A stretch of 64,000 nt of DNA, from positions 34,885 to 98,884 of the IMG/VR virus record IMGVR_UViG_2724679293_000007; one strand, given 5' to 3'. Under the pieces are notes generated by a model, which saw only the letters and a list, made by a program, of their open reading frames with translations, had not been told where the DNA came from and did no database searches. This DNA comes from a virus. Lineage: Duplodnaviria; Heunggongvirae; Uroviricota; Caudoviricetes. The position numbers and the translations under genes were made by a program. Every line of letters begins with the position of its first letter. The first letter of the stretch is position 1. Below are positions 1,918 through 52,655 of the stretch, piece after piece.

Positions 1918-3833
1918 GCCGCTACCCCCGCTTTCTGGATTGCTACCAGCAGATCAGCCAGGTGGCGAGCAGCGCCATTAACCAGCTCTTCGTTTTCCTC
2001 AAAACGCCCGGCAGCCTGAAGGGCTGCAATCGCTTCCCGGACATTACCCCGGGCGTTACGGATCTCCGCCATGTCAGTGCTTTGCATATCCATCACGTTA
2101 TTGAGATATTCAATGGCTTTATTAGCCTCTGCATCTGCTTCGCTAACCGTTTCATCAGGCTGTGCCGGGGCAGGTTCTGGCTGAGTAATCTCACCGACTT
2201 CGGCCTGCAATGCATTGATCATGCTCTGCACCATTTTCTCGGTGCCAGCGCCCCCCGGAAACGCAATATTGGGGAAAGTTTTTTGAAACTGAGTTTTCAG
2301 CATTACGCGGAACTCGTCTGGTGAGCTGGTGGCCAGCTCCAGAGCTTTTTGTGCATATTTGCCAAACGGACCATTAGTAAGTGTCTTCGCCAGGAAGTCG
2401 AAAGAATCCTCGCGAGGCAATAACTTCAGGTCGTACTCACTCATTTGCTGATCAGAAAGCGGGGTATCGTAAGTAGCAATGCCGTAGCGTGCATATTCAT
2501 AATACGGGTCACCTTCATCAGGGCGCGGCAGAATTGCTTTGTTACCTTCAGGTATTGCGCCAGGGGCCGCCGGACGCATTTGCAGGGCATATCGATATGC
2601 ACCTACAGAGACTTCTGGTTCAGGCGAAGAGCTACCGGTATCCTCCGCTGGTTCAGGTTCGACGTTTTCCGGTTTATGTTCTTCTGGTTGGACCAGGTAT
2701 TCCGATACATTACCCGCTTTATAGGCTTTAAACAGCTTGCCGATCGCATCTGCCATGTCCACACCCTGTATGGATTTAGCCTTGATCATGTACACGCTGC
2801 CATCCGAATCGGTTAACTGGATATACCCTTCGCCGTCCTCAATGAATTGCTTCATTGATGCACCATTACTGAGCGTCACTTCCCCGTTCATATGCATACG
2901 ATTTTTGATACTGGCAAGGCGATCCATCATCGCGCGAGAGTGTCCACCAGTCATCCCTGCAGGAGCAATGGTATCGCGCCCACCAGTGCGATTGAGCTGA
3001 TCAATCTCCGTCTGCAAACGCTCATTCTCTTCATAAAGAGAATCCGCTTCCGATGCAACAGCGTTAATTTTCTGCTCCAGATCTGCCTTCTGCCCTTCTA
3101 CCGCTGCCACCTGATCCACGAGGTCGCTCATGGCATCCTCTTTCTGGTCACTGTCAGCCTGTAGTTGGGTTATTTCATCAACAAGGGCTTTTTTCTTCTT
3201 CTGCGCACGCTGGAATTTTGCCGAGTTTTTCTCTGCAAGGTTGGCAAGTTTCATGGTGACCTGCGCCAGCGTCATATCACGTCCACTCATCGGAGCAACT
3301 GTGTGAGTAACGTCTTTTTTATTCAGTAAGAACTGGAAAGCAACCAGCGTATCGCTATTGGTGATCCGGTTTTCCGCTGTCGGGCTATGAAACAGAATGC
3401 TGATAGTCTGACCATCACTGAGCGGAATAATGGCTGGCAAGACCGGCAGCCCGTTAACGTTACGTGCCCGGCCAATTTCAGCGCCGCCGATCGCGCGCGC
3501 GCCGCTCTGGGCCACATCCCCCGTTTTATCACTCCCCGCAGAGATTCCGGTACCATTCAGCTTCTGGTTCAATGCCCGGACAAATGCCTGCATGGTCCGG
3601 TGTAACTGCAAACGAGTAGAACTAATCGCCTCCAGTAAATCCGTAGCACACCAGTGGATCGGCGTGTCATAGAAGAACGTAGCCTCGATTTCCTCCAGGG
3701 TGTTGGATTCCGTCATCAGATAGCGGTCCTCACCGGCCATTAATGCGCGATATTCATCATCAGTCACTGGCGGGGGAAGCACGTCAAGCCCAGGCTTGAT
3801 CGTCACCCCTTTATTGATATTGAACTGTTCCAT
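1914..3833 (-). CDS. darA: DarA-like antirestriction internal head protein
   Basis: 639-aa ORF with central coiled-coil; position between the lysis genes and the large downstream ORF matches the P1 dar operon; upstream paralog fragment (Hdf) shares a motif (AEKNSAKFQRAQ vs ARKNSAKFQKSL). Confidence 0.65.
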   Translation of the reverse strand: MEQFNINKGVTIKPGLDVLPPPVTDDEYRALMAGEDRYLMTESNTLEEIEATFFYDTPIHWCATDLLEAISSTRLQLHRTMQAFVRALNQKLNGTGISAGSDKTGDVAQSGARAIGGAEIGRARNVNGLPVLPAIIPLSDGQTISILFHSPTAENRITNSDTLVAFQFLLNKKDVTHTVAPMSGRDMTLAQVTMKLANLAEKNSAKFQRAQKKKKALVDEITQLQADSDQKEDAMSDLVDQVAAVEGQKADLEQKINAVASEADSLYEENERLQTEIDQLNRTGGRDTIAPAGMTGGHSRAMMDRLASIKNRMHMNGEVTLSNGASMKQFIEDGEGYIQLTDSDGSVYMIKAKSIQGVDMADAIGKLFKAYKAGNVSEYLVQPEEHKPENVEPEPAEDTGSSSPEPEVSVGAYRYALQMRPAAPGAIPEGNKAILPRPDEGDPYYEYARYGIATYDTPLSDQQMSEYDLKLLPREDSFDFLAKTLTNGPFGKYAQKALELATSSPDEFRVMLKTQFQKTFPNIAFPGGAGTEKMVQSMINALQAEVGEITQPEPAPAQPDETVSEADAEANKAIEYLNNVMDMQSTDMAEIRNARGNVREAIAALQAAGRFEENEELVNGAARHLADLLVAIQKAGVAA

Positions 3834-3834
3834 G

Positions 3835-4446
3835 TTAATTTCCTGCTTTCAGTTGCTTAAGACGGCGTTTGAGTTCGCCATTTCTGGCCTTTTCGTTATT
3901 GAGTCGGCCTGTCTCCTTATCCAGCTTCGCCCGCAAATCAGTGATCTGCTGTTGATTGAAAGACACCGAATTCTGCGCGGACTTATAAGCGGCAACCACC
4001 TGAGCATTCCGCTGTTTTGCTTCTTGCAGGCGCTGAAAGTTGGATTTAACTGCCGGTTTCTTGTCTACCGGATTGGCTACACGCTTCGCTTTGGCGATCA
4101 GTGATTTCTGGAATTTTGCGGAGTTTTTGCGGGCCGCCTGTCCCATGACGGTACCAAGCGTCTTGATATCCGGCGACTGAGCGTTAGGAATAGCTTTTCC
4201 ATTCAGTTTCACAGACGATATATCGCCAGTATCGTTTACCTGTATGGCAAGGATTTGTCCGTCGTTAAGAACCAGCTTTGCGGTTTTAACTTTAACGCCA
4301 TCTTTCGTTGTTGCGCGGTTGCTGGAGTCAACCTCAATTACCGTAACCCCGGTTTTATTGATCGCCGCGATAAGGGATTTCAGCCCCTTTTCATTAACCT
4401 GGTCAAAATCGACCGTTGCATACTTATTTTTCGTCATCTGACACAT
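3835..4446 (-). CDS. hdf: Hdf-like protein (homolog of a DarA segment)
   Basis: 203-aa ORF; internal similarity to the darA product visible by eye; operon position. Confidence 0.6.
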   Translation of the reverse strand: MCQMTKNKYATVDFDQVNEKGLKSLIAAINKTGVTVIEVDSSNRATTKDGVKVKTAKLVLNDGQILAIQVNDTGDISSVKLNGKAIPNAQSPDIKTLGTVMGQAARKNSAKFQKSLIAKAKRVANPVDKKPAVKSNFQRLQEAKQRNAQVVAAYKSAQNSVSFNQQQITDLRAKLDKETGRLNNEKARNGELKRRLKQLKAGN

Positions 4447-4867
4447 CCTGTGCGAGATTTATTACGTAACTTCTGCGGATTTGCTGAGTAACAGGGAAAA
4501 TCCGATACAACGGGTTAATGAACGAGTCGCCATGCGTAACCATGACGTTGAAATGCCACAGTCGCTCTCCTTTACCCATATATTCAGTGGGTATGTACAA
4601 CCATTCACTGTTTTCGCCCTGTTCAGCCGACGTCAGACAACGTTGTTCGCCTTCAATCACTGTCGTCGGCTTCTGAACATCGCGGATCCAATATCTGACC
4701 GTTGCGCCGCGCAAAAACGGGAATTTAGACCGGTATTTGAACGGCACCCGGATGAAACCCGGTTTAATTTCCACATCACCAAGTTCTAAATGCGTGATGT
4801 CCTTGCGTTTTAGCAAATAGCGATCGGCTAAGGCTAACGCAAGAACGCATACACCCCAGCCAATCAT
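4424..4867 (-). CDS. lysis regulator (LydB-like), N-terminal hydrophobic segment
   Basis: 147-aa ORF overlapping the holin-like gene stop; hydrophobic N-terminus MIGWGVCVLALALA; name by synteny. Confidence 0.45.
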   Translation of the reverse strand: MIGWGVCVLALALADRYLLKRKDITHLELGDVEIKPGFIRVPFKYRSKFPFLRGATVRYWIRDVQKPTTVIEGEQRCLTSAEQGENSEWLYIPTEYMGKGERLWHFNVMVTHGDSFINPLYRIFPVTQQIRRSYVINLAQDVSDDEK

Positions 4868-5193
4868 TTCCCGCCTCCCTTTTTCACCAAACTTGTAAGA
4901 ACATTCAGAATGCTATCGATATTCACTCGTTTCATCCCTGAAATCACCTCATGACCGTTATTGCTGGCTATCGTTACCATTAAGTACGTAATTGATAACT
5001 CCCAGCCCTCGTGTTGCCCCAATAGGTACGCCACCGCGCCAGCTGTCACTGCAACAAAGATCTCCGTAACCAATCCCAACAAATTGCCAGACTGGCGACC
5101 GTCTCGGACATCCATCAGGAACGTGCCTATCCCACCAATTACTGAAAGCAGGAGCGCAATAGCAACTGGAGCTAATTCCTGTGTGTCAAGCAC
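4864..5193 (-). CDS. holin-like small membrane protein (LydA-like), GTG start
   Basis: 109 aa with 2-3 predicted TM helices; GTG start preceded by AGGAGGG. Confidence 0.55.
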   Translation of the reverse strand: MLDTQELAPVAIALLLSVIGGIGTFLMDVRDGRQSGNLLGLVTEIFVAVTAGAVAYLLGQHEGWELSITYLMVTIASNNGHEVISGMKRVNIDSILNVLTSLVKKGGGK

Positions 5194-5253
5194 AAGTTCC
5201 CTCCTACGTTGTCAGGAGGTAATGGTATGCAAAGTAACTTCTCATCTGGTTGT

Positions 5254-5538
5254 TCATAATTTGCCAATACATTCGTAAATCAAGTGAAAAACCCATATTT
5301 TGGTTATTCTTAATACAAAATGGCTATTCCAACTACATATCAAAAAAGCAACCACATCCAAAAATGAGTTTCCCCACTGAACTTCTGCAAGACAAAAACC
5401 AACAAAACCACCTTTTATGGCAAGCAGCCATGCTTCAAGCCAATGTAAAAAACATGGCTTATAAGCTCCACGCCTAACTCCAGTAAGAAATAAATAGGTT
5501 CCACTAATAATGGACATTAAAAAAATCAAAATCTGCAT
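5254..5538 (-). CDS. small hydrophobic membrane protein
   Basis: 94-aa ORF in an AT-rich stretch; strong RBS (GGGAGGAG) 4 nt before ATG; hydrophobic throughout. Confidence 0.45.
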   Translation of the reverse strand: MQILIFLMSIISGTYLFLTGVRRGAYKPCFLHWLEAWLLAIKGGFVGFCLAEVQWGNSFLDVVAFLICSWNSHFVLRITKIWVFHLIYECIGKL

Positions 5539-5659
5539 AAGCTCCTCCCGGATCTAACAAAAATCAAGCAGGAACCTATTCAGATTGTTATTTCTGTGCA
5601 TAACGCTTTGTTCTTTAAAATTCGCAGACTCATAAGAACAACGCATTAGAGTAAAAATC

Positions 5660-6220
5660 ATGCTGATCGGCTATGTACGCGTATCAACAAATGAACAAAA
5701 CACTGCTTTGCAACGAAATGCCCTTGAAAGCGCAGGATGTGAGCTAATTTTTGAGGATAAGGCGAGCGGCAAAAAGACTGAACGCCCTGGGCTAAAAAAG
5801 GTTTTGCGTATGCTTTCCAGAGGTGACACCCTGGTCGTATGGAAGTTAGATCGTCTTGGGCGCAGCATGCGTCACTTGGTTGTGCTGGTGGAAGAGCTGC
5901 GTGACAGAGGAATTAATTTCCGGAGTCTCACTGACTCTATCGACACCAGTACACCAATGGGGCGCTTTTTCTTTCACGTAATGGGGGCGCTGGCAGAAAT
6001 GGAACGTGAGCTTATCGTTGAACGTACACGCGCTGGACTTGATGCAGCTCGCGCAGAAGGTCGTATAGGTGGGCGTCGGCCTAAATACCAAGAAGAAACA
6101 TGGCAGCAAATGCGGCGATTGCTCGAGAAGGGCATCCCCCGTAAGCAGGTTGCAATCATCTATGATGTGGCTGTTTCCACGCTTTATAAGAAGTTTCCGG
6201 CGTCATCATTTCAATCCTAA
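5660..6220 (+). CDS. cin: Cin-type serine DNA invertase (Hin/Gin/Pin/Cin family)
   Basis: 186 aa; N-terminal [13 protein letters not shown] with catalytic Ser, resolvase core, C-terminal HTH; immediately followed by a cix-like site and the inverted repeats. Confidence 0.95.
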
Positions 6221-6237
6221 ACCTTGGTTTAAGAGAA
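6212..6237. other. cixL-like crossover site (26 bp, imperfect dyad around central TT)
   Basis: caatcctaaacc-tt-ggtttaagagaa overlaps the cin stop; the right half matches the hix/gix/cix half-site family (TTCTCTTAAACC on the other strand). Confidence 0.7.
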
Positions 6238-6804
6238 CTTGGCACAAGCGGTGAAAAGATCCCCCTGTTGAGCACGGCTAACACATGGAGCGCACGCCAG
6301 ACTTTCAACGGTGGGATCACCGGGGCGCTGGCGGGGAACGCCGACACCGCGACGAAATTAAAAACAGCCAGAAACATTAATGGCGTCAGGTTCGATGGTT
6401 CGGCTGACATTAATATCAATACTCTGGTATCTCGCGGTCGCGTAACGGCCCTGGAGGCGAATGCACAGGGAACATCCGGGATTCAGCTGTATGAGGCATA
6501 CAACAATGGCTACCCTTCCCCCTATGGCAATGTGCTTCACCTTAAAGGTGCCACCGCTGCTGGCGAAGGTGAGTTATTCATTGGCTGGAGTGGCACGAGC
6601 GGTGCCCATGCGCCCGTACATATCCGTTCGCGGCGGGATACTGATTCTGCCAACTGGTCTGAATGGGCGCAGGTCTATACGTCAAAAGATTCAATTCCCG
6701 GCGTCAATGCCAAAGGGAATCAGGACACCTCTGGTAATGCGGCTACAGCGACCAAGTTGCAGACAGCATGTACTATCAATGGCGTCTCGTTTGATGGTTC
6801 TAAA
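6226..6804. repeat. left inverted repeat of the invertible segment (~579 bp)
   Basis: Reverse-complement near-identity with 11087..11665; the track ORFs 6461..6832(+) and 11074..11430(-) translate identically over ~116 aa. Confidence 0.85.
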
Positions 6805-23880: not shown

Positions 23881-24027
23881 GATTAACTATCTCCTGCCAC
23901 AGATAAAACGCCTTAAAATAACATTTTGTAGCATAAAGTTTCACCATGCAATGGTCAAAATCTTTGACCCATATCAATTAAACTCATACATTTTAGTTAC
24001 CAGGGAAATAATTTACATGGTTGCAAG

Positions 24028-42551: not shown

Positions 42552-44566
42552 AAGAGCTGTGCTATGGATCTGTTTGCAGTGGAATTGAAGCCGCGAGTAT
42601 TGCCTGGGAACCGTTGGGTATGCGTCCGGCGTGGTTTGCTGAAATCGAGCCTTTTCCATCTGCCGTTCTTGCGCACCGCTGGCCCCATGTCGCCAACCTT
42701 GGCGACATGACAAAACTTGCCAAAAAAGTCCTGGCTGGGGAAATCGAATCCCCTGATGTGCTCGTCGGGGGAACACCTTGTCAGGCATTCAGTATCGCGG
42801 GATTAGGTGGTGGGCTTGATGATGAGCGTGGCGCGCTAACTTTAAAGTATGTGGAGCTTGCAAATGCAATTGACGACAAACGGGCTGAGTCATTTCTCAA
42901 ACCAGCAGTTATCGTCTGGGAAAATGTCCCAGGAGTCTTGTCATCGGCAGATAACGCCTTCGGATGTTTCCTTGCCGGATTGGCTGGAGAAGATGCGCCA
43001 TTCGAACCAGGTGATCGACCTGAATCAGGAAAAAGTAACGCGTTCTGGCGGTGGGATGTCAAAACCGGTTGCCATGCTCCAAAGTGGCCGCAGTGTGGTT
43101 GTATTTATGGACCGCAGCGAAAAGTGGCCTGGAGAATCCTTGATGCCCAATACTTCGGAGTGGCACAACGACGCCGACGCGTGTTTGTTGTCGCAAGTGC
43201 TCGAACAGACCTCGATCCCGCAACGGTACTTTTTGAGTTCGAAGGCGTGCGCCGGAATATTGCGCCGAGCAGAGGCGAGGGGAAGGAAACTACCAGATAT
43301 ACTTCAAACATCGCTATCAGAACTTGCGATGATACAAACATAATTGCCATGGCACATGGGCAAGGAGGGGCTGAGATAAAAACCGATAATTCGGCACCAA
43401 CTTTGACATGTAACCATGAAGCACCAATTGTATTGCTCGGCGACGGTAGAATGCGCCGTCTTACCCCTGTCGAATGTGAAAGGCTGCAAGGTTTTCCTGA
43501 TGGACATACATTGATCCCTACGGAAAAGCGTAAAAAAGTTTCTTCAGATGAACTGGCATACCTTCGCAAAAACTATCCTGATTTGAGCGAAGAAGAGGCC
43601 GCGATGCTTGCAGCTGACGGACCGCGTTACAAAGCGATCGGCAATAGTATGGCGATACCAGTAATGCGCTGGATTGGCGATCGGATTACCAAGGCTGCAT
43701 GTCGGCAGAATGAAGGGAATGAAACAAAAGAGCGAAAAGTTAAACCAGCGGCAGAATTCGAACGGTCCATATTCAAATGGGCTGGTGGAAAATTTGGTGT
43801 TCTGGAACAAATCTTTCGCTATTTGCCAGAAGGGAAGCGCCTGATTGAACCTTTTGTCGGTGGCGGAGCTGTCTTCATGAATGCCGGATACAAGGAAAAT
43901 CTGCTAAATGATGTGAATGCTGACCTGATTAACTTTTACAAGACTTTGCAACGTGAGGAACGTTCACTTATCACTCTGGCGCATCGGTTTTTCCAGGACT
44001 ACAACACACAGGAAGGATACCTGGCAGTACGGAATGCGTTTAACAAACAAGTCTATGATGATTTACATCGCGCAGCGGCGTTTTTGTTCCTGAACCGACA
44101 TTGTTTTAACGGATTGACGCGTTACAACCAGGCCGGTGAGTTCAATGTCGGTTATGGGAAGTATAAAACTCCGTATTTCCCATTGCAGGAGATGGAAGCC
44201 TTCCTTGGTGCGGAAGGGCGTTCTGAGTTTGTATGTGGTGATTTTGCTGCGGTGATTGAAGCTGCCGGAGAAGGAGATGTCATTTTTTGCGATCCGCCAT
44301 ATGAACCGCTTCCAAATACAGAGGGATTCACGAACTATTCCGGTCATGACTTTAAGTTTGAAGAGCAAAAACGCCTGGTGTCTCTGTTGACGGATGCTCA
44401 TCGCCGAGGTGCAAAGGTTCTCATTACTAACAGTGGCGCGCCAAACATCAGAGAGCTTTATCATGACAATGGCTTCAGAGTGGAACCTCTTTTTGCCAGA
44501 CGTTCTGTGTCTTGTAAGGGGGACACTCGAGGTGTTGCTCATGACGTTTTAGGTATATTGCTCTAA
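42548..44566 (+). CDS. dmt: bifunctional DNA methyltransferase: N-terminal C5-cytosine MTase motifs, C-terminal Dam-like N6-adenine MTase
   Basis: [13 protein letters not shown] (motif IV, PCQ), VIVWENVPG (ENV); later EPFVGGGAV and FCDPPYEP (DPPY). Confidence 0.9.
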
Positions 44567-44573
44567 TAAATTT
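44557..44573 (+). promoter_or_regulatory. C1 operator, perfect match to ATTGCTCTAATAAATTT, overlapping the dmt stop codon
   Basis: Seen directly; directly followed by its own partial reverse complement (TTTATTAG). Confidence 0.8.
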
Positions 44574-44589
44574 ATTAGTGTAATATCGC

Positions 44590-44773
44590 CTCAATGAATC
44601 GTGATTTATAGAGCGATTTAGCTGTTAGCCGCGACAGGCGCGGCGGTAAGCATGGCTGGGCCTAGTCCTCCCAGACAAACCACCGAGTTGCCAGGTTGAC
44701 CATGCGCCTAAGTGGCAACGCCGAAGTGCGTTACGAGCTTCCAGTTTGCCCATCTTCGGGTGGGCGTTTTTTT
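44590..44773 (+). ncRNA. candidate structured small RNA (first unit of the ban-operon leader)
   Basis: Four successive hairpins (gccgcg/cgcggc; ctggg/cccag; gttgcca/tggcaac; terminator) and no ORF >15 codons. Confidence 0.35.
44748..44773 (+). terminator. rho-independent terminator
   Basis: gcccatcttcgggtgggc followed by GTTTTTTT. Confidence 0.6.
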
Positions 44774-44929
44774 CAGGGTTTTCGTCATGGTTAGCGACTT
44801 TGCGGCGGTTTAGAAACTGACCATTAAAGTAAATGCAAACGATAATCTGATGATGGTAGCGGCCTAAGAAGCCAGACGCCACGGGGTATGAGTCGTCCCC
44901 CGTCAAAAAATCGACCACAGAGTGTCCCC

Positions 44930-45545
44930 GTCTGTGTATTAGGGAACGGGGAGGCACAACAGGTAAGGGCATTCTCCCTTATGGGGCTTGGCTTAAATGC
45001 ATCGAGTGCTCTTACCGTTGTGATGAAGTGCAGCTCTTTGAAGCAACCAGAAGATAAGCATCTGGCTTCACAACATAAACCGCAGGAACGACCAATAAAC
45101 GGTAGTCCGTATGGAGAACACCCCGTTGAGGAAGAGGCCTGGCCGGAACCGTAACCGGCACTACAACGTTGAGAACATTGGCGTAACGGGGTCATATCCC
45201 AATCTATGAATAAATGTCGCGAGGCAGCGTGACAACCAGTGTTCTCAACATTGTGGTGAATGCACAGGCTGATGTGCCGCAACTACAGTAGTGCGCGCTT
45301 TGCGGGGCTTGCTACAACCCTGTGTCGGAGTTCAGCACCGACCATCACAGTTTGATTCTCTGGCATGAGCATAACGCTGAAATAAGTCCAGTCTGGTGCG
45401 GTCTGATCACCCGCCGTTAGCTCCACGAAACGGAGCACGTAACAGGTAAGAGCATTCTCCTGTAACGGGTTCATATCCCAATCTACAGGTCCACCAAGAA
45501 TGCTCTTTCCGTTGCGGTGAATGCGGCTAAGCGCACGCGGGGAAA
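44930..45545 (+). repeat. three paralogous structured elements (~100 nt each) in a non-coding leader
   Basis: Units at ~44955-45040, ~45160-45280, ~45440-45540 share a 14-bp stem (ggtaagRgcattctcc or gttgagaacattgg with its complement), a loop module aacgggKtcatatcccaatcta (units 2 and 3) and a 3' motif gttgYGRtgaaKtgc. Confidence 0.5.
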
Positions 45546-45665
45546 TGGTTATATCTGTCCATTATTTCTCCTTGTTTCCCCGTCCACGGTAGATAACCAG
45601 CCAAAGGATACCGGGAGGCACCCGGCACCGCAGCTTTTTTATTCGTTAAATAATGGAGTGAGAGG

Positions 45666-45902
45666 ATGCAGAACAATCCGAACAAATGTCGAACGCTATG
45701 GGTGCGGTTATATATTTATGCCGTCCTCTGTTTGATTGTGTCACTGGTTCTGTATGTTTGGCTTTTGCCAAATATGATCTCATCTAACAGCACAATACTT
45801 GTATTGTTGGGAGTCCTTCTCGCGCTCATTTACCCGGCTTTCGCAGTAGTCTTTTTTCGTGAAAAAACCAGGAAATTAATTAATGAAAAAAACGTTGATT
45901 AG
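45666..45902 (+). CDS. small two-TM membrane protein preceding the SPFH lipoprotein
   Basis: 78 aa; GGAG-type RBS; overlaps the next gene start. Confidence 0.5.
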   Translation: MQNNPNKCRTLWVRLYIYAVLCLIVSLVLYVWLLPNMISSNSTILVLLGVLLALIYPAFAVVFFREKTRKLINEKNVD

Positions 45903-46710
45903 TGCAGCGATTATTTTGGGTTCTTTATGTCTGACCGGATGCGATCGGGTAGAGCCAGGTAACGTAGGGATCAAAGTAAATAAGCTGGGGGATGATAAAG
46001 GTATCGGTGAAGTAGTTGGCGTTGGTCGCTACTGGACAGGCTTGAATACTGAAGTTTATATCTTCCCGACCTTTAAGCAAATGAAGACATACGATGAGCC
46101 GTTCAGCTTCCAGATGAGCGACGGAACAACCATTGGTTACCACATCGGCGTAGCCTACAAGGTTGATCCAGCAAAAGTCACAACGGTATTTCAGACCTAT
46201 CGCAAAGGTGTAGATGATATTACTGATACCGATCTACGCCAGAAGGTTGCAGATGCTCTGAACCGGTTAGCCAGCAAAATGACCACCGACAAATTTATCG
46301 ACGGTGGCAAATCTGAATTGCTTGATGCAGCCCTTAAAGACATTCAGGAAGAAATGACGCCAATCGGCATTCAGGTGATGAGCCTCTCTTATGTAGGTAA
46401 GCCAGAATACCCGCCAACAGTTATTGACAGTATTAACGCCAAAGTCACGGCAAACCAAAAAACCCTGCAACGCGAGCAAGAGGTCAAACAACGTGAAGCA
46501 GAGGCCAACATGCTGCGCGCGGAAGCTGCCGGACAGGCTGATGCTATTCGCACAAAAGCCCAGGCCGAAGCTGATGCCATTCGTTTACGTGGTGAAGCTC
46601 TGCGCCAGAACCCCGGTGTTATGGAGTTGGAAGCGATCAACAAATGGAACGGTACATTACCGCAGTATATGACCAGTAATACCGCTGTTCCGTTTGTTCC
46701 GGTGAAATAA
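45883..46710 (+). CDS. SPFH (band-7/prohibitin-like) domain lipoprotein
   Basis: Lipobox LCLTGC; SPFH-like core; C-terminal Ala/Glu/Arg-rich coiled coil (REAEANMLRAEAAGQADAIRTKAQAEADAIRLRGEALRQ). Confidence 0.8.
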   Translation: MKKTLISAAIILGSLCLTGCDRVEPGNVGIKVNKLGDDKGIGEVVGVGRYWTGLNTEVYIFPTFKQMKTYDEPFSFQMSDGTTIGYHIGVAYKVDPAKVTTVFQTYRKGVDDITDTDLRQKVADALNRLASKMTTDKFIDGGKSELLDAALKDIQEEMTPIGIQVMSLSYVGKPEYPPTVIDSINAKVTANQKTLQREQEVKQREAEANMLRAEAAGQADAIRTKAQAEADAIRLRGEALRQNPGVMELEAINKWNGTLPQYMTSNTAVPFVPVK

Positions 46711-46737
46711 AAGTGTAAGCAAAATTGGCAGTAATCC

Positions 46738-46813
46738 GGCCCTTTAGCTCAGTGGTTAGAGCTGGCGACTCATAATCGCACGGTCACCGGTTCAAGTCCG
46801 GTAGGGGCCACCA
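46738..46813 (+). tRNA. tRNA with anticodon CAU, ileX-like (tRNA-Ile2; Met not excluded)
   Basis: Cloverleaf folded by hand: acceptor GGCCCTT/AGGGGCC, D-arm GCTC-AGTGGTTA-GAGC, anticodon loop CTCATAA, T-arm ACCGG-TTCAAGT-CCGGT, encoded CCA; near-identical to E. coli ileX as recalled. Confidence 0.9.
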
Positions 46814-47093
46814 CATTTGGTTGTAACACGGCGTCTGGCACATGCGTCGTTAGCGGTCTGGTGACGTTAAAAGGGGGGAACCTTGCCCCTAGCTCAGGCA
46901 ACGAACCAGGTAGCCGGAATGTGCAAGCCACCGTTTGTTGTTTTTCGGGTAAAGGGATTCACCATCCTGGCGATTCGGTGTGACAGCCGGGAAGAGTCCG
47001 GCGCATTAATCCTGATTTTCTGGTGATGACTCATATCGTTAGGAGTGATTTGAGTATGCCGATTATATCTGACATTCAGCACACCAGGATGGA

Positions 47094-48464
47094 GTGTTAA
47101 TGTCTGCATCCCCTCTTGAATCCATGCCAAATTCCCTTAGTGCAGAACAAGCTGTGCTTGGTGGCTTAATGCTTGATAACTGCCGCTGGGATGAAGTTGC
47201 AGATCGTATAGTTGCTGATGATTTTTATACCAGTGCTCATCGTGAAATTTTCAGTGAGATGGAGAGGTTATTAAGTCATGGCAAACCGATTGATTTGATA
47301 ACACTTGCTGAAGCACTTGAACAGAACGGTAAATTAGAACGCGCCGGTGGTTTTGCGTACCTTGCGGAGATGTCAAAGAACACGCCCAGCGCGGCAAATA
47401 TTTGTGCTTATGCGGATATCGTTCGTGAACGCGCGGTTGTTCGTGAAATGATTTCCGTCGCAAATGAAATAGCCGAAGCTGGATATGTGCAGGATGGCAG
47501 GGGCAGCAATGAATTGCTGGATATGGCCGAGCGCCGCGTTTTTGAAATAGCTGAAAAACGACAAAAGAGCGGTAGTGGTCCAAAAGATATCGCCAGCATT
47601 CTCGATGCAACGGTATCTCGCATAGAAGAGTTGTTTCAGCGACCGCATGATGGTGTAACGGGGCTTGATACCGGATTTACCGATCTCAATAAGAAGACGG
47701 CAGGACTTCAGCCGTCCGATCTCATTATTGTCGCCGCCCGCCCATCGATGGGGAAGACCACGTTTGCGATGAATCTCGTCGAAAATGCCGCAGTTCGTAA
47801 CGATAAGCCCGTATTGGTTTTTAGCCTTGAGATGCCGAGCCACCAGCTGATGATGCGCTCACTGGCTTCTCTTGCACGCGTTGATCAGACTCGTATTAGA
47901 ACGGGGCAACTTAACGATGATGATTGGGCGCGGGTTTCTGGCGCAATGGGTATTCTGTTGGACAAGCAGAATATTTTTATTGATGACTCAAGCGCCCTGA
48001 CGCCGACAGAGCTACGTTCCCGCGCTCGTCGTGTTTATAAAGAAAATGGTGGTTTGAGCATGATTATGATCGACTACCTGCAACTTATGCGCGTCCCCGA
48101 GCTGCAAGATAACCGAACGCTGGAAATTGCCGAGATTTCTCGCTCACTGAAGGCGTTGGCGAAGGAATTACAAGTACCGGTGGTGGCATTGTCACAACTT
48201 AATCGATCGCTTGAACAGCGTGCGGACAAACGACCGGTAAATTCAGATTTACGTGAATCAGGAGCAATTGAGCAGGACGCAGACCTGATTATGTTTCTGT
48301 ATCGCGACGAAGTTTATCACCCGGATAGCGAAATGAAGGGCATTGCCGAGGTAATTATCGGAAAGCAACGAAATGGCCCAATTGGCACGGTGAGATTGGC
48401 TTTTAACGGCCAATACTCACGGTTTGATAACTATGCCGGTGCTGACTGGCAAGAGGATTATTAA
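47094..48464 (+). CDS. ban: DnaB-family replicative helicase (Ban)
   Basis: 456 aa; DnaB N-terminal domain and RecA-like core with Walker A (PSMGKTTF). Confidence 0.95.
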   Translation: MLMSASPLESMPNSLSAEQAVLGGLMLDNCRWDEVADRIVADDFYTSAHREIFSEMERLLSHGKPIDLITLAEALEQNGKLERAGGFAYLAEMSKNTPSAANICAYADIVRERAVVREMISVANEIAEAGYVQDGRGSNELLDMAERRVFEIAEKRQKSGSGPKDIASILDATVSRIEELFQRPHDGVTGLDTGFTDLNKKTAGLQPSDLIIVAARPSMGKTTFAMNLVENAAVRNDKPVLVFSLEMPSHQLMMRSLASLARVDQTRIRTGQLNDDDWARVSGAMGILLDKQNIFIDDSSALTPTELRSRARRVYKENGGLSMIMIDYLQLMRVPELQDNRTLEIAEISRSLKALAKELQVPVVALSQLNRSLEQRADKRPVNSDLRESGAIEQDADLIMFLYRDEVYHPDSEMKGIAEVIIGKQRNGPIGTVRLAFNGQYSRFDNYAGADWQEDY

Positions 48465-49462
48465 TGCAATGGAATGAGGAAAAGCCGATGAACATCCTGA
48501 TCATTGGGCGAAAATTTGCAGCCATCAGTGATGTGAAAACATATACGGAAATGTGGTCTTATAACCTGGCCTGCGCCTTTAGTGAGGCAGGGGTAACATT
48601 GCAATACCATCGTCCATATTCCCCTGGCGTCGAAAGCCCCGAGGATTATGTTGAAGCTGTGTTGACTGCTGCGACAGCATGTTCTGCGAAGGCCATTTTG
48701 GCACCAGGATTGAGGTATTTTACTACGGTACCCAGGGAAATAGGCATGCAACTGTGTCGCCGATTCTCTGGATGGGTAGCCCAGGTATATGACGGTTCTA
48801 TGCTGGATTCGGCACCAGTCGATATTACTTTTACTGTCCGCGATGATACCTGGCGGTACCTGGATAATCCCGGTCGGTTAGAACGTCATAATCGCTTTAA
48901 CAAACATGTTGGATGGGCAGCGAATCAGGAGCTGTTCCATCTGGAAACCAAAACAGACGATGTTCTGCGTATTTTTGTAGACCACGCTGCATTTGATGTT
49001 AGTGGTTTTGATCACTCCTTAAGTATCCTTATGAACCTTCAGCGTCTGACCGTTCCGTATGAGGCCAGAACGTTGACTGATGACGGATTGGTTACCATTG
49101 ATCCGGGGAATATTTCGGTAACTCCATACAGGCGGACGCCGGTGCCAGCAACCGAATTTGCAGCTGAATTGTGTAAGAGTGACGTTTTTATCGTTACGCA
49201 TCCCGAAAGCCTTGGATTAACTGTTCTTGAGGCGGCAATGTGCGGGGCGTTGGTATTAACGCCTCCCGATTGCCTTCCGCCAGATCGCCTGGCTTTGGTG
49301 AACCATATGGTTATCAAGTCGCGGATTGATTGGGATGAGGTTATTGCTCGCGTTGATCGCGTGAAAAATGCTGAAAAGGTCCAGTGTCACACCTGGTCGG
49401 CAATTGCGGAAAAGATGCTTGAGACGTTTATCACGCAGAAACCGTCGTGCGGTAACGGATAA
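48464..49462 (+). CDS. hypothetical protein downstream of ban with a glycosyltransferase-like C-terminal motif
   Basis: 332 aa; ...VTHPESLGLTVLEAAMCGALVLTP... resembles the GT-B E-x7-E region; start overlaps the ban stop. Confidence 0.55.
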   Translation: MQWNEEKPMNILIIGRKFAAISDVKTYTEMWSYNLACAFSEAGVTLQYHRPYSPGVESPEDYVEAVLTAATACSAKAILAPGLRYFTTVPREIGMQLCRRFSGWVAQVYDGSMLDSAPVDITFTVRDDTWRYLDNPGRLERHNRFNKHVGWAANQELFHLETKTDDVLRIFVDHAAFDVSGFDHSLSILMNLQRLTVPYEARTLTDDGLVTIDPGNISVTPYRRTPVPATEFAAELCKSDVFIVTHPESLGLTVLEAAMCGALVLTPPDCLPPDRLALVNHMVIKSRIDWDEVIARVDRVKNAEKVQCHTWSAIAEKMLETFITQKPSCGNG

Positions 49463-49508
49463 AAAATTGAACCCGTCATAACAGAAAAGCCCGAACGCCG
49501 GGCTTTTC

Positions 49509-52655
<3,147 letters not shown>

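Follow-up and report, generated by a model that had tools for sequence, protein, structure and literature searches.

An SPFH lipoprotein gene and a small membrane-protein gene occupy the tciABC slot in the ban operon of a P1-family phage-plasmid

Results and discussion

The 64,000-nucleotide (nt) stretch of DNA analysed here, called the window throughout (positions 34,885-98,884 of the IMG/VR virus record IMGVR_UViG_2724679293_000007), contains the ban operon of a P1-family phage-plasmid in which the slot held in P1 by tciA, tciB and tciC has been refilled by a two-gene membrane module. The module consists of a gene for a predicted two-helix membrane protein of 78 amino acids (aa) and, overlapping it, a gene for a 275-aa SPFH/Band 7 lipoprotein. 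The locus was mapped by blastn against P1 (NC_005856, locus L001) together with the annotation of the P1 record; its features lie on the plus strand unless otherwise stated. Three blocks of the window matched P1:

44001-44970, matching P1 locus 1002-1970: end of dmt, C1 operator Oban, ban promoters and 'dicF-like region'
45005-45640, matching P1 locus 2463-3098: the minus-strand open reading frames (ORFs) plp and upl
46729-49600, matching P1 locus 3815-6686: trnI, ban and dbn

Between the second and the third block, the pair and its flanks (45641-46728, 1088 base pairs, bp) sit exactly at the position of P1 tciA-tciB-tciC (716 bp), and blastn against P1 detected no counterpart of tciA, tciB or tciC in the window. 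The exchange lengthens the slot by 372 bp. Homology between the window and P1 breaks directly after a leader RNA and 10 nt before trnI, and therefore two structured-RNA genes flank the swapped segment. The features of the locus are as follows:

44557..44584, plus strand: bivalent C1 operator (P1 Oban/Op72ab); it overlaps both the ban promoters and the 3' end of dmt, which stops at 44566
44681..44782, plus strand: dicF-like region, mapping to the P1 'dicF-like region' (L001 1682-1783)
44824-45282, minus strand: plp homologue with its 3' end lost, reading on as a 152-aa ORF (blastn to P1)
44954..44970, no strand: deletion scar, a single copy of the 17-bp direct repeat GCACAACAGGTAAGGGC
45283..45474, minus strand: upl homologue, 63 aa (mapping to P1; phrog_14500, E 8e-49)
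45511-45632, plus strand: leader RNA, structured and conserved, followed by a T-run at 45633-45638
45666..45902, plus strand: predicted two-helix inner-membrane protein, 78 aa (phrog_1130, 'membrane protein', E 6e-16)
45883..46710, plus strand: SPFH/Band 7 lipoprotein, 275 aa (phrog_200, E 2e-113)
46738..46813, plus strand: trnI, tRNA-Ile2 with anticodon CAU, lysidine type (ARAGORN; Rfam tRNA, 64.7 bits)
47100..48464, plus strand: ban, DnaB-type replicative helicase (Pfam DnaB and DnaB_C, E 6e-108; NCBIfam replicative helicase models)
48464..49462, plus strand: dbn, putative glycosyltransferase (phrog_2518, E 1e-238; weak Pfam match to glycosyltransferase group 1; P1 annotation)

The ban operon of the window and that of P1

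The locus runs from the C1 operator and promoter, located where dmt ends, through a dicF-like RNA and its terminator, the vacated site of a tRNA island, upl and plp, the leader RNA and the variable slot to trnI, ban and dbn. P1 has the operator, the dicF-like region, upl/plp, the leader RNA, trnI, ban and dbn in the same succession, with nucleotide identities of 97-99%. As in the P1 operon, a bivalent C1 operator lies at the 3' end of dmt, and both ban and dbn follow it on that strand. The window differs from P1 in the exchange of tciA-tciB-tciC for the 78-aa/SPFH pair and in a deletion that removed trnA, trnT and the 3' end of plp. Thus, trnA, trnT and tciABC are all missing from the window, and a single tRNA remains there.

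Segment 44500-49600 matches P1-family phages end to end at 98-99% identity (RCS47, vB_EcoM-813R1 and several records named 'phage P1'), whereas P1 proper covers only 78% of it. Segment 42300-47500 is 100% identical to the plasmid AP026755.1 of Escherichia coli O165:H25, except for one deletion. An initial annotation, made from the sequence alone, had described the locus as the ban operon of a P1-like element, and both the gene order relative to P1 and a perfect C1 operator at the Oban position agree with that description. All the features it had listed (the 78-aa ORF, the SPFH lipoprotein, the CAU tRNA, ban, a hairpin and a T-run) are present and co-directional. Its description of the genes as tightly spaced holds for the two ORFs, which overlap by 20 nt, and for the 27 nt between the SPFH gene and the tRNA, but not for the 286 nt between the tRNA and ban.

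A cassette present in about half of the P1-like plasmids

Requiring at least 80% of the cassette or of tciABC in each plasmid, we detected the cassette in 189 PLSDB plasmids and tciABC in 191. About half of the sequenced P1-like plasmids carry the SPFH version of the ban operon, and for this reason it has to be considered an ordinary version. A survey of P1-like phage-plasmids described tciABC as a highly variable region that is lost in nearly half of the plasmids, leaving the replacement unnamed (PMC9603915).

In RCS47 (NC_042128), vB_EcoM-813R1, Ro157c2YLVW and AP026755.1, the cassette is 98-100% identical to that of the window and in the same position; these records differ from the window in keeping the tRNA-Asn/tRNA-Thr island. 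The SPFH gene is labelled in them as lipoprotein, SPFH domain protein or 'serine protease', and the 78-aa gene is often unannotated. Among P1-like IMG/VR contigs, three alternative first genes start 150-159 nt past the start of a core sequence in the leader RNA: P1 tciA, a P7-type terB (30% identical to tciA) and the 78-aa gene.

In the D6-like plasmid NZ_CP086483 (locus L012, 2355-3801), the leader RNA and the pair form one block with a CAU tRNA, in another neighbourhood that lacks ban downstream. Over its first 64 codons, the small gene of this plasmid is nearly identical to that of the window (synonymous divergence, dS, of 0.04), whereas dS reaches 0.49 for the SPFH gene, a contrast that indicates a recombination point within the module.

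The SPFH lipoprotein

The initial annotation had assigned the larger protein to the SPFH family, and this assignment is upheld by three lines of evidence. Pfam Band_7 (PF01145) matches residues 22-208 with 107.6 bits against a cutoff of 23.6 (E 1e-30). The AlphaFold model (predicted local distance difference test, pLDDT, of 78) has the expected fold, an SPFH domain followed by a 65-residue helix (178-242) rich in Ala, Glu and Arg. Foldseek returned full-length matches to prohibitin, HflK/C, erlin, stomatin and flotillin complexes (E 1e-13 to 1e-8), and also to QmcA of the QmcA-YbbJ complex. The gene is strongly constrained: compared with the D6-like copy, it shows 67 synonymous and 5 non-synonymous differences, corresponding to a ratio of non-synonymous to synonymous divergence (dN/dS) of 0.016.

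The N-terminus, MKKTLISAAIILGSLCLTGC, has the organization of a lipoprotein signal, with MKK, a hydrophobic stretch and the lipobox L17-T18-G19-C20, in which G19 and C20 are invariant or nearly so among homologues. The mature protein is predicted to start with Cys-Asp-Arg. The Asp in the second position (Asp21, or +2) is found in the window, P88, Stx/PPompW and 7t3 copies. According to the +2 rule of E. coli lipoproteins, Asp at this position favours inner-membrane retention.

The 78-aa membrane protein

The small ORF is preceded by GGAG 7 nt upstream. The hydropathy of its product peaks at residues 15-35 and 43-64, and the AlphaFold model, with a modest pLDDT of 68, contains helices at 5-38 and 43-77 and no strand. 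Conservation is concentrated in the turn that links the two segments (LLPxMISxxxT) and at a Pro-Ala of the second segment. The positive charges at the ends of the protein suggest that both termini are cytoplasmic, which would leave a short conserved turn in the periplasm.

The initial annotation had left room for this ORF not being conserved. The comparison with the 71%-identical copy in a P1-like plasmid of Salmonella diarizonae (locus L013) yields 29 synonymous and 30 non-synonymous differences, with a dN/dS of 0.205 in frame versus about 1.6 in the other two frames, so the ORF is conserved and under purifying selection. The D6-like copy shows only 4 differences in 64 codons, a part that is a recent recombinant, and dN/dS is uninformative there.

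Spread of the two-gene module

Judged from sequence comparison, the 78-aa and SPFH genes are real genes that form a linked module recurring in P1-, D6-, P2-, lambda-, N4-like and jumbo phages. Relatives of the SPFH protein were found in 795 phage records, including viruses of Staphylococcus, Pseudomonas, Enterococcus and Halorubrum. Homologues of the 78-aa protein (22-46% identity) are encoded directly upstream of the SPFH gene, and overlapping it, in Erwinia phage S6 (N4-like), P88 (P2-like), Enterobacter phage SABI and Salmonella phage 7t3 (jumbo). The same layout is found in the lambdoid prophage PPompW (record of the Stx2a-converting phage Stx2_14744, LC567820), where the partner is an unannotated 62-aa ORF with two hydrophobic segments (locus L010, 2316-2504), a diverged homologue of the 78-aa protein. 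Klebsiella phage K17alpha62 (locus L009) was set aside for its unusable annotation. The PPompW SPFH gene, overlapped at its start by this ORF, is annotated as 'serine protease'.

Among IMG/VR loci, 73 of 80 contain an ORF of 62-78 aa with two hydrophobic segments whose stop codon lies 1-20 nt past the SPFH start, although these 80 loci comprise close SPFH relatives only (at least 92% identity) and represent few independent lineages. In P88 (locus L007, 3630-3827), the pair is followed by matches to isrK and to the C4 antisense RNA, both above their Rfam gathering scores, and then by a gene annotated as 'derepression protein'. A literature search returned no paper naming both 'P1-like' and 'SPFH', and the papers found to mention phage SPFH genes merely list them and give no function.

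A structured leader RNA and a dicB-type slot

The initial annotation had pointed to a weak hairpin followed by a T-run upstream of the pair. Both are present, but the hairpin (CCGGGAGGCACCCGG, 45610-45624) is the last stem-loop, at the 3' end, of a larger conserved RNA whose closing helix is formed by GUUGCGGUG and CACCGCAGC. This leader RNA contains an invariant 25-nt core, GGTGAATGCGGCTAAGCGCACGCGG, at 45516-45540, which is present in at least 119 viral contigs (L016-L134). RNAalifold, applied to 69 distinct copies including that of the window, gave 29 base pairs in five helices; compensatory changes were found in 9 of these pairs, several of which have changed in 12-25 sequences each. The element measures about 120-150 nt across copies. 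By its 25-nt core and its five-helix structure with covariation, it corresponds to the RNA located between dicF and dicB in lambdoid loci, for which there is no named family.

Two other interpretations of this RNA were considered and set aside. Rfam STnc100 (RF02076) aligns to the leader over model positions 31-147 of 206 with 33 bits, against a gathering score of 47; the P1, D6-like and S. diarizonae relatives likewise match it partly and below the gathering score. We rejected the leader as a recognised member of STnc100, since the gathering score is reached neither in the window and its relatives nor in the lambdoid loci. A terminator was dropped as the main interpretation of the hairpin and T-run, given that it was not called by the terminator scan, that the local fold is unremarkable (z score of -1.45) and that the T-run is unconserved. 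The T-run occurs in the window and in the D6-like copy and is absent from P1, from L013 and from all lambdoid copies, so a conserved terminator role is unlikely. The leader RNA could act as a leader, as a processing site or as a stabiliser.

In lambdoid contigs, the element starts about 10 nt past the terminator of DicF, which scores there above its Rfam gathering threshold, and it ends about 20-40 nt before the PGAP-annotated dicB or other small ORFs (77, 94 and 283 aa). The leader region of the ban operon resembles the dicBF operon in its layout, and the 78-aa/SPFH pair is at what would be the position of dicB. The ban operon shares with the dicBF operon of Qin and lambdoid prophages a repressor-controlled promoter, a small RNA with a terminator, a structured RNA and a small effector gene about 20-40 nt further on. 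The small RNA of the window has a hairpin, GTTGCCA...TGGCAAC, that matches the hairpin located 5' of DicF in lambdoid loci, GTTGTCA...TGACAAC, with a compensatory change. The two operons differ in three respects. The Rfam DicF model misses the P1-type RNA: in the window, DicF (RF00039) gave no match at E <= 1 and its gathering score was not reached. The effector is an SPFH pair, not DicB. The distance from the dicF-like RNA to the leader is about 740 nt in the window (1180 nt where the tRNAs are kept), compared with about 10 nt in lambdoid copies.

The dicBF operon of Qin has a single promoter, under repressor control, with no internal one found, and read-through at the DicF terminator produces a ydfABC-dicFB-ydfD transcript (PMC10448788). 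DicB is reported to guard against phage by inhibiting inner-membrane receptor proteins (PMC6832061). The TerB-like family to which TciA belongs has been linked to phage inhibition and colicin resistance (PMC9603915). Tentatively, the leader may be a portable mark of an 'effector slot' common to lambdoid dicBF and P1-family ban operons. The pair would then be a counterpart of DicB or TciA, made early and located at the inner membrane, that blocks the entry of superinfecting phages or colicins or holds the envelope until lysis. We regard this proposal, which is an analogy, as possible and still some way from probable.

Expression and possible role of the pair

The sequence ATTGCTCTAATAAATTT is perfect at 44557-44573, with an inverted copy carrying 2 mismatches at 44568-44584, and this position maps to P1 Obanab (L001 1558-1585). 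In total, 8 C1-operator-like sites were detected in the window, versus 0.26 expected by chance, as would be expected for a P1-type immunity network. Six further sites, with 1-3 mismatches, lie at 24027, 25717, 41281, 57958, 58007 and 60100. In the P1 record, Oban controls ban, 2.5 kb downstream, and the operator is intact in the window. From this homology, we infer that the pair is co-regulated with ban under C1, as had been proposed in the initial annotation.

Located downstream of a C1-repressed promoter, the pair would not be expressed in the lysogen; induction or infection would switch it on early, along with trnI and Ban, and its overlapping ORFs would be translationally coupled. The SPFH protein would be cleaved and lipidated at Cys20, and Asp at +2 would keep it on the periplasmic face of the inner membrane. 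Its long C-terminal helix probably drives the formation of a closed ring or cage, as in the SPFH proteins solved as complexes, and this cage would cover a membrane patch holding the 78-aa partner. By analogy, the pair would most likely condition or protect the inner membrane of the infected cell, through superinfection exclusion or envelope stabilization, whereas a role in replication is unlikely. The suggestion of envelope protection stems from the fact that, in related elements, the same slot holds other inner-membrane or division effectors, such as DicB, which acts through ManYZ to stop phage DNA from entering, and the TerB-like TciA. Taken as a whole, the reading we favour is that of a P1-type ban operon with a coupled pair, in which an early-made, lipid-anchored SPFH ring acts with its hairpin partner at the inner membrane to protect or condition the envelope of the infected cell; we give it an even chance of being correct.

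Several points weigh against this reading. Two terminator-like structures separate the operator from the pair: a strong intrinsic terminator called within the dicF-like region (stem at 44747-44766, then TTTTTTT, to 44773) and, after the leader, the T-run at 45633-45638. In L013 (about 4545-4813), no tRNA stands before the helicase gene; the SPFH gene has a hairpin behind it, and a C1-operator-like sequence, ATTGCTCTAAT, lies immediately upstream of the helicase start, so the pair and the helicase may be separate units in that plasmid. Homologous pairs are also present in virulent phages (N4-like and jumbo), which makes a role tied to lysogeny unlikely and leaves exclusion as one of several possible early functions. 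The phages S6 and SABI have Tyr instead of Asp after the lipobox Cys, so inner-membrane retention may not be general. No PADLOC model matches either protein meaningfully. Finally, the argument from the slot is one of guilt by position, not of homology, and should be read as an analogy.

Among the alternatives, the one that survives best is that the pair forms a separate unit, with the leader and the T-run ending upstream transcription and with the pair and ban each expressed on their own. The T-run directly past the closing helix of the leader in the window, the arrangement in L013 and the D6-like plasmids that carry the pair elsewhere with no ban downstream are all consistent with it. However, this T-run is the one missing from P1, L013 and all lambdoid copies, a promoter scan found no sigma-70-like promoter between the leader and the pair, Oban is recorded in P1 as controlling ban from 2.5 kb away, and the homologous dicBF operon lacks an internal promoter and yields read-through transcripts (PMC10448788). 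We therefore consider a separate unit unlikely.

Somewhat more doubtful is the possibility that the SPFH protein mimics or competes with HflK/C, its periplasmic cage capturing or excluding the host FtsH, so that membrane proteins or regulators would be turned over differently during phage development. In HflK/C, the SPFH domains face the periplasm, and the window protein resembles HflK/HflC in overall fold and long helix and in its domain being predicted to be periplasmic, on the inner membrane. Among solved structures, HflK is the best match to the sequence profile (E 4e-4); the top fold matches include both HflK and HflC, and the NCBIfam models give weak matches to hflC (E 9e-6) and hflK (E 4e-5). 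The corresponding scores, 24.7 versus a cutoff of 134.4 for hflC and 23.3 versus 159.4 for hflK, are far below the equivalog cutoffs, and on these grounds an HflK/C orthologue was rejected; prohibitin, erlin and stomatin match equally well. The window protein also differs from HflK/HflC in its low identity (17-18%), in being encoded by a lone SPFH gene instead of two paralogues and in having a lipobox instead of a transmembrane helix. Moreover, P1 development is not known to depend on FtsH.

Lysogenic conversion, in which a prophage-made lipoprotein would alter the host surface or virulence, appears improbable. A precedent exists in PM0222, an HflK/C-like SPFH protein encoded in a prophage island of Pasteurella multocida, which is released in outer-membrane vesicles, signals via TLR1/2 and aids virulence (PMC9872710), and the PHROG class of the 78-aa family is 'moron, auxiliary metabolic gene and host takeover'. 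Nevertheless, a perfect C1 operator precedes the pair, and the operon is kept repressed in lysogens of P1; N4-like and jumbo phages that are strictly virulent carry homologous pairs; and Asp at +2 argues for inner-membrane retention and not for surface exposure.

The initial annotation had taken the pair for an SPFH protein with an NfeD-like partner, in an operon compacted by the loss of regions between Plp and ban. SPFH genes often adjoin NfeD genes, as in QmcA-YbbJ (PDB 8z5g), and the pair resembles such operons in that an SPFH scaffold gene, matching QmcA in fold and long helix, stands next to an adjacent, co-directional and overlapping gene for a small membrane protein; tciABC is indeed absent. 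QmcA itself has a transmembrane anchor and faces the cytoplasm, whereas the SPFH protein of the window is predicted to be exported and lipid-anchored. The partner is not NfeD-like: Pfam NfeD (PF01957) gave no match to the 78-aa protein at E <= 0.1, and the model of the 78-aa protein has no strand, an NfeD beta-barrel being precluded because 78 residues with two membrane helices leave no room for it. Compaction fails at the slot, where the cassette exceeds the segment it replaces, and the SPFH lipoprotein is not P1 Plp, which the P1 annotation places on the minus strand, upstream of the slot, as an ORF of 125 aa. A canonical SPFH-NfeD microdomain pair in a compacted ban operon is accordingly the least probable of the explanations, and we dismiss it as very improbable.

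The deleted tRNA island, plp and upl

With respect to AP026755.1, to which the window is 100% identical on either side, 439 bp bounded by the 17-bp repeats are missing (locus L005, 2672-3110), and with them the 3' end of plp. The deleted segment held a tRNA-Asn (L005 2940-3015) and a tRNA-Thr (L005 3018-3093). All the best matches among PLSDB plasmids and complete E. coli genomes keep the tRNA island between the repeats, and the emptied site was found in none of them. The content of the island varies among relatives (Asn-Thr, Tyr-Arg-Thr or Tyr-Thr-Asn). The upl promoters predicted in P1 lie within tciA (L001 3114-3173), a segment absent from the window; either upl is expressed differently in the window or the P1 promoter prediction is wrong. 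The plp frame is rich in Cys, and no family match was found for it beyond P1-like phages.

trnI, ban and dbn

The gene trnI encodes the only tRNA of the window. Its sequence is the same as that of P1 trnI and shares 89.5% identity with the tRNA-Ile (CAU) of E. coli K-12; the K-12 genome has just two matching places, and PGAP calls every match to trnI a tRNA-Ile. Positions 1-7 read GGCCCTT and positions 66-72 read AGGGGCC, so C4:G69 and C5:G68 are present, and it is by these two pairs that E. coli TilS tells tRNA-Ile2 from tRNA-Met (PMC11947777). G1 and C72 are paired, and the anticodon stem, GGCGA, lacks the three G-C pairs of the initiator. Identity is 71% to elongator and 63% to initiator tRNA-Met. 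The AUA-decoding type proposed in the initial annotation is thus supported by the TilS identity pairs and by the likeness to the K-12 tRNA-Ile, and the tRNA is of neither the initiator nor the elongator Met type. Compared with E. coli tRNA-Ile2 (ileX/ileY), it has the same anticodon CAU, an identical anticodon loop and the same C4:G69 and C5:G68 pairs; it differs by eight substitutions, mostly paired changes in the T-arm, and A43 gives G27-A43 instead of G27-U43.

Across 57 ORFs of the window, AUA accounts for 10.9 per 1000 codons and 18% of the Ile codons. In E. coli K-12, AUA makes up roughly 4-5 per 1000 codons and 7-8% of Ile codons. The SPFH gene has 0 AUA among its 18 Ile codons. From its identity elements, trnI would supply AUA decoding.

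The ban region is 99% identical to P1 ban, and the start of the gene is taken as the ATG at 47100, following the P1 annotation, and not as the GTG at 47094 of the ORF list. The last gene of the co-directional block is dbn.

Significance

Hundreds of sequenced P1-like elements already contain the architecture described here, for the most part with annotation. In this sense, the analysis is a routine annotation of the variable region of P1-like phage-plasmids, which shows what replaces tciABC in about half of them and puts right the label of the SPFH lipoprotein, probably misnamed as Plp or, in several records, as 'serine protease'. It also places the SPFH lipoprotein and its mini membrane partner among the more widespread accessory modules of phages. 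The shared leader RNA and the slot it precedes go beyond what the initial annotation had claimed and are the part most worth following. The dicB-type position offers a concrete, testable hypothesis for the function of the module and, if true, would give a first function to a module found in hundreds of temperate and virulent phages.

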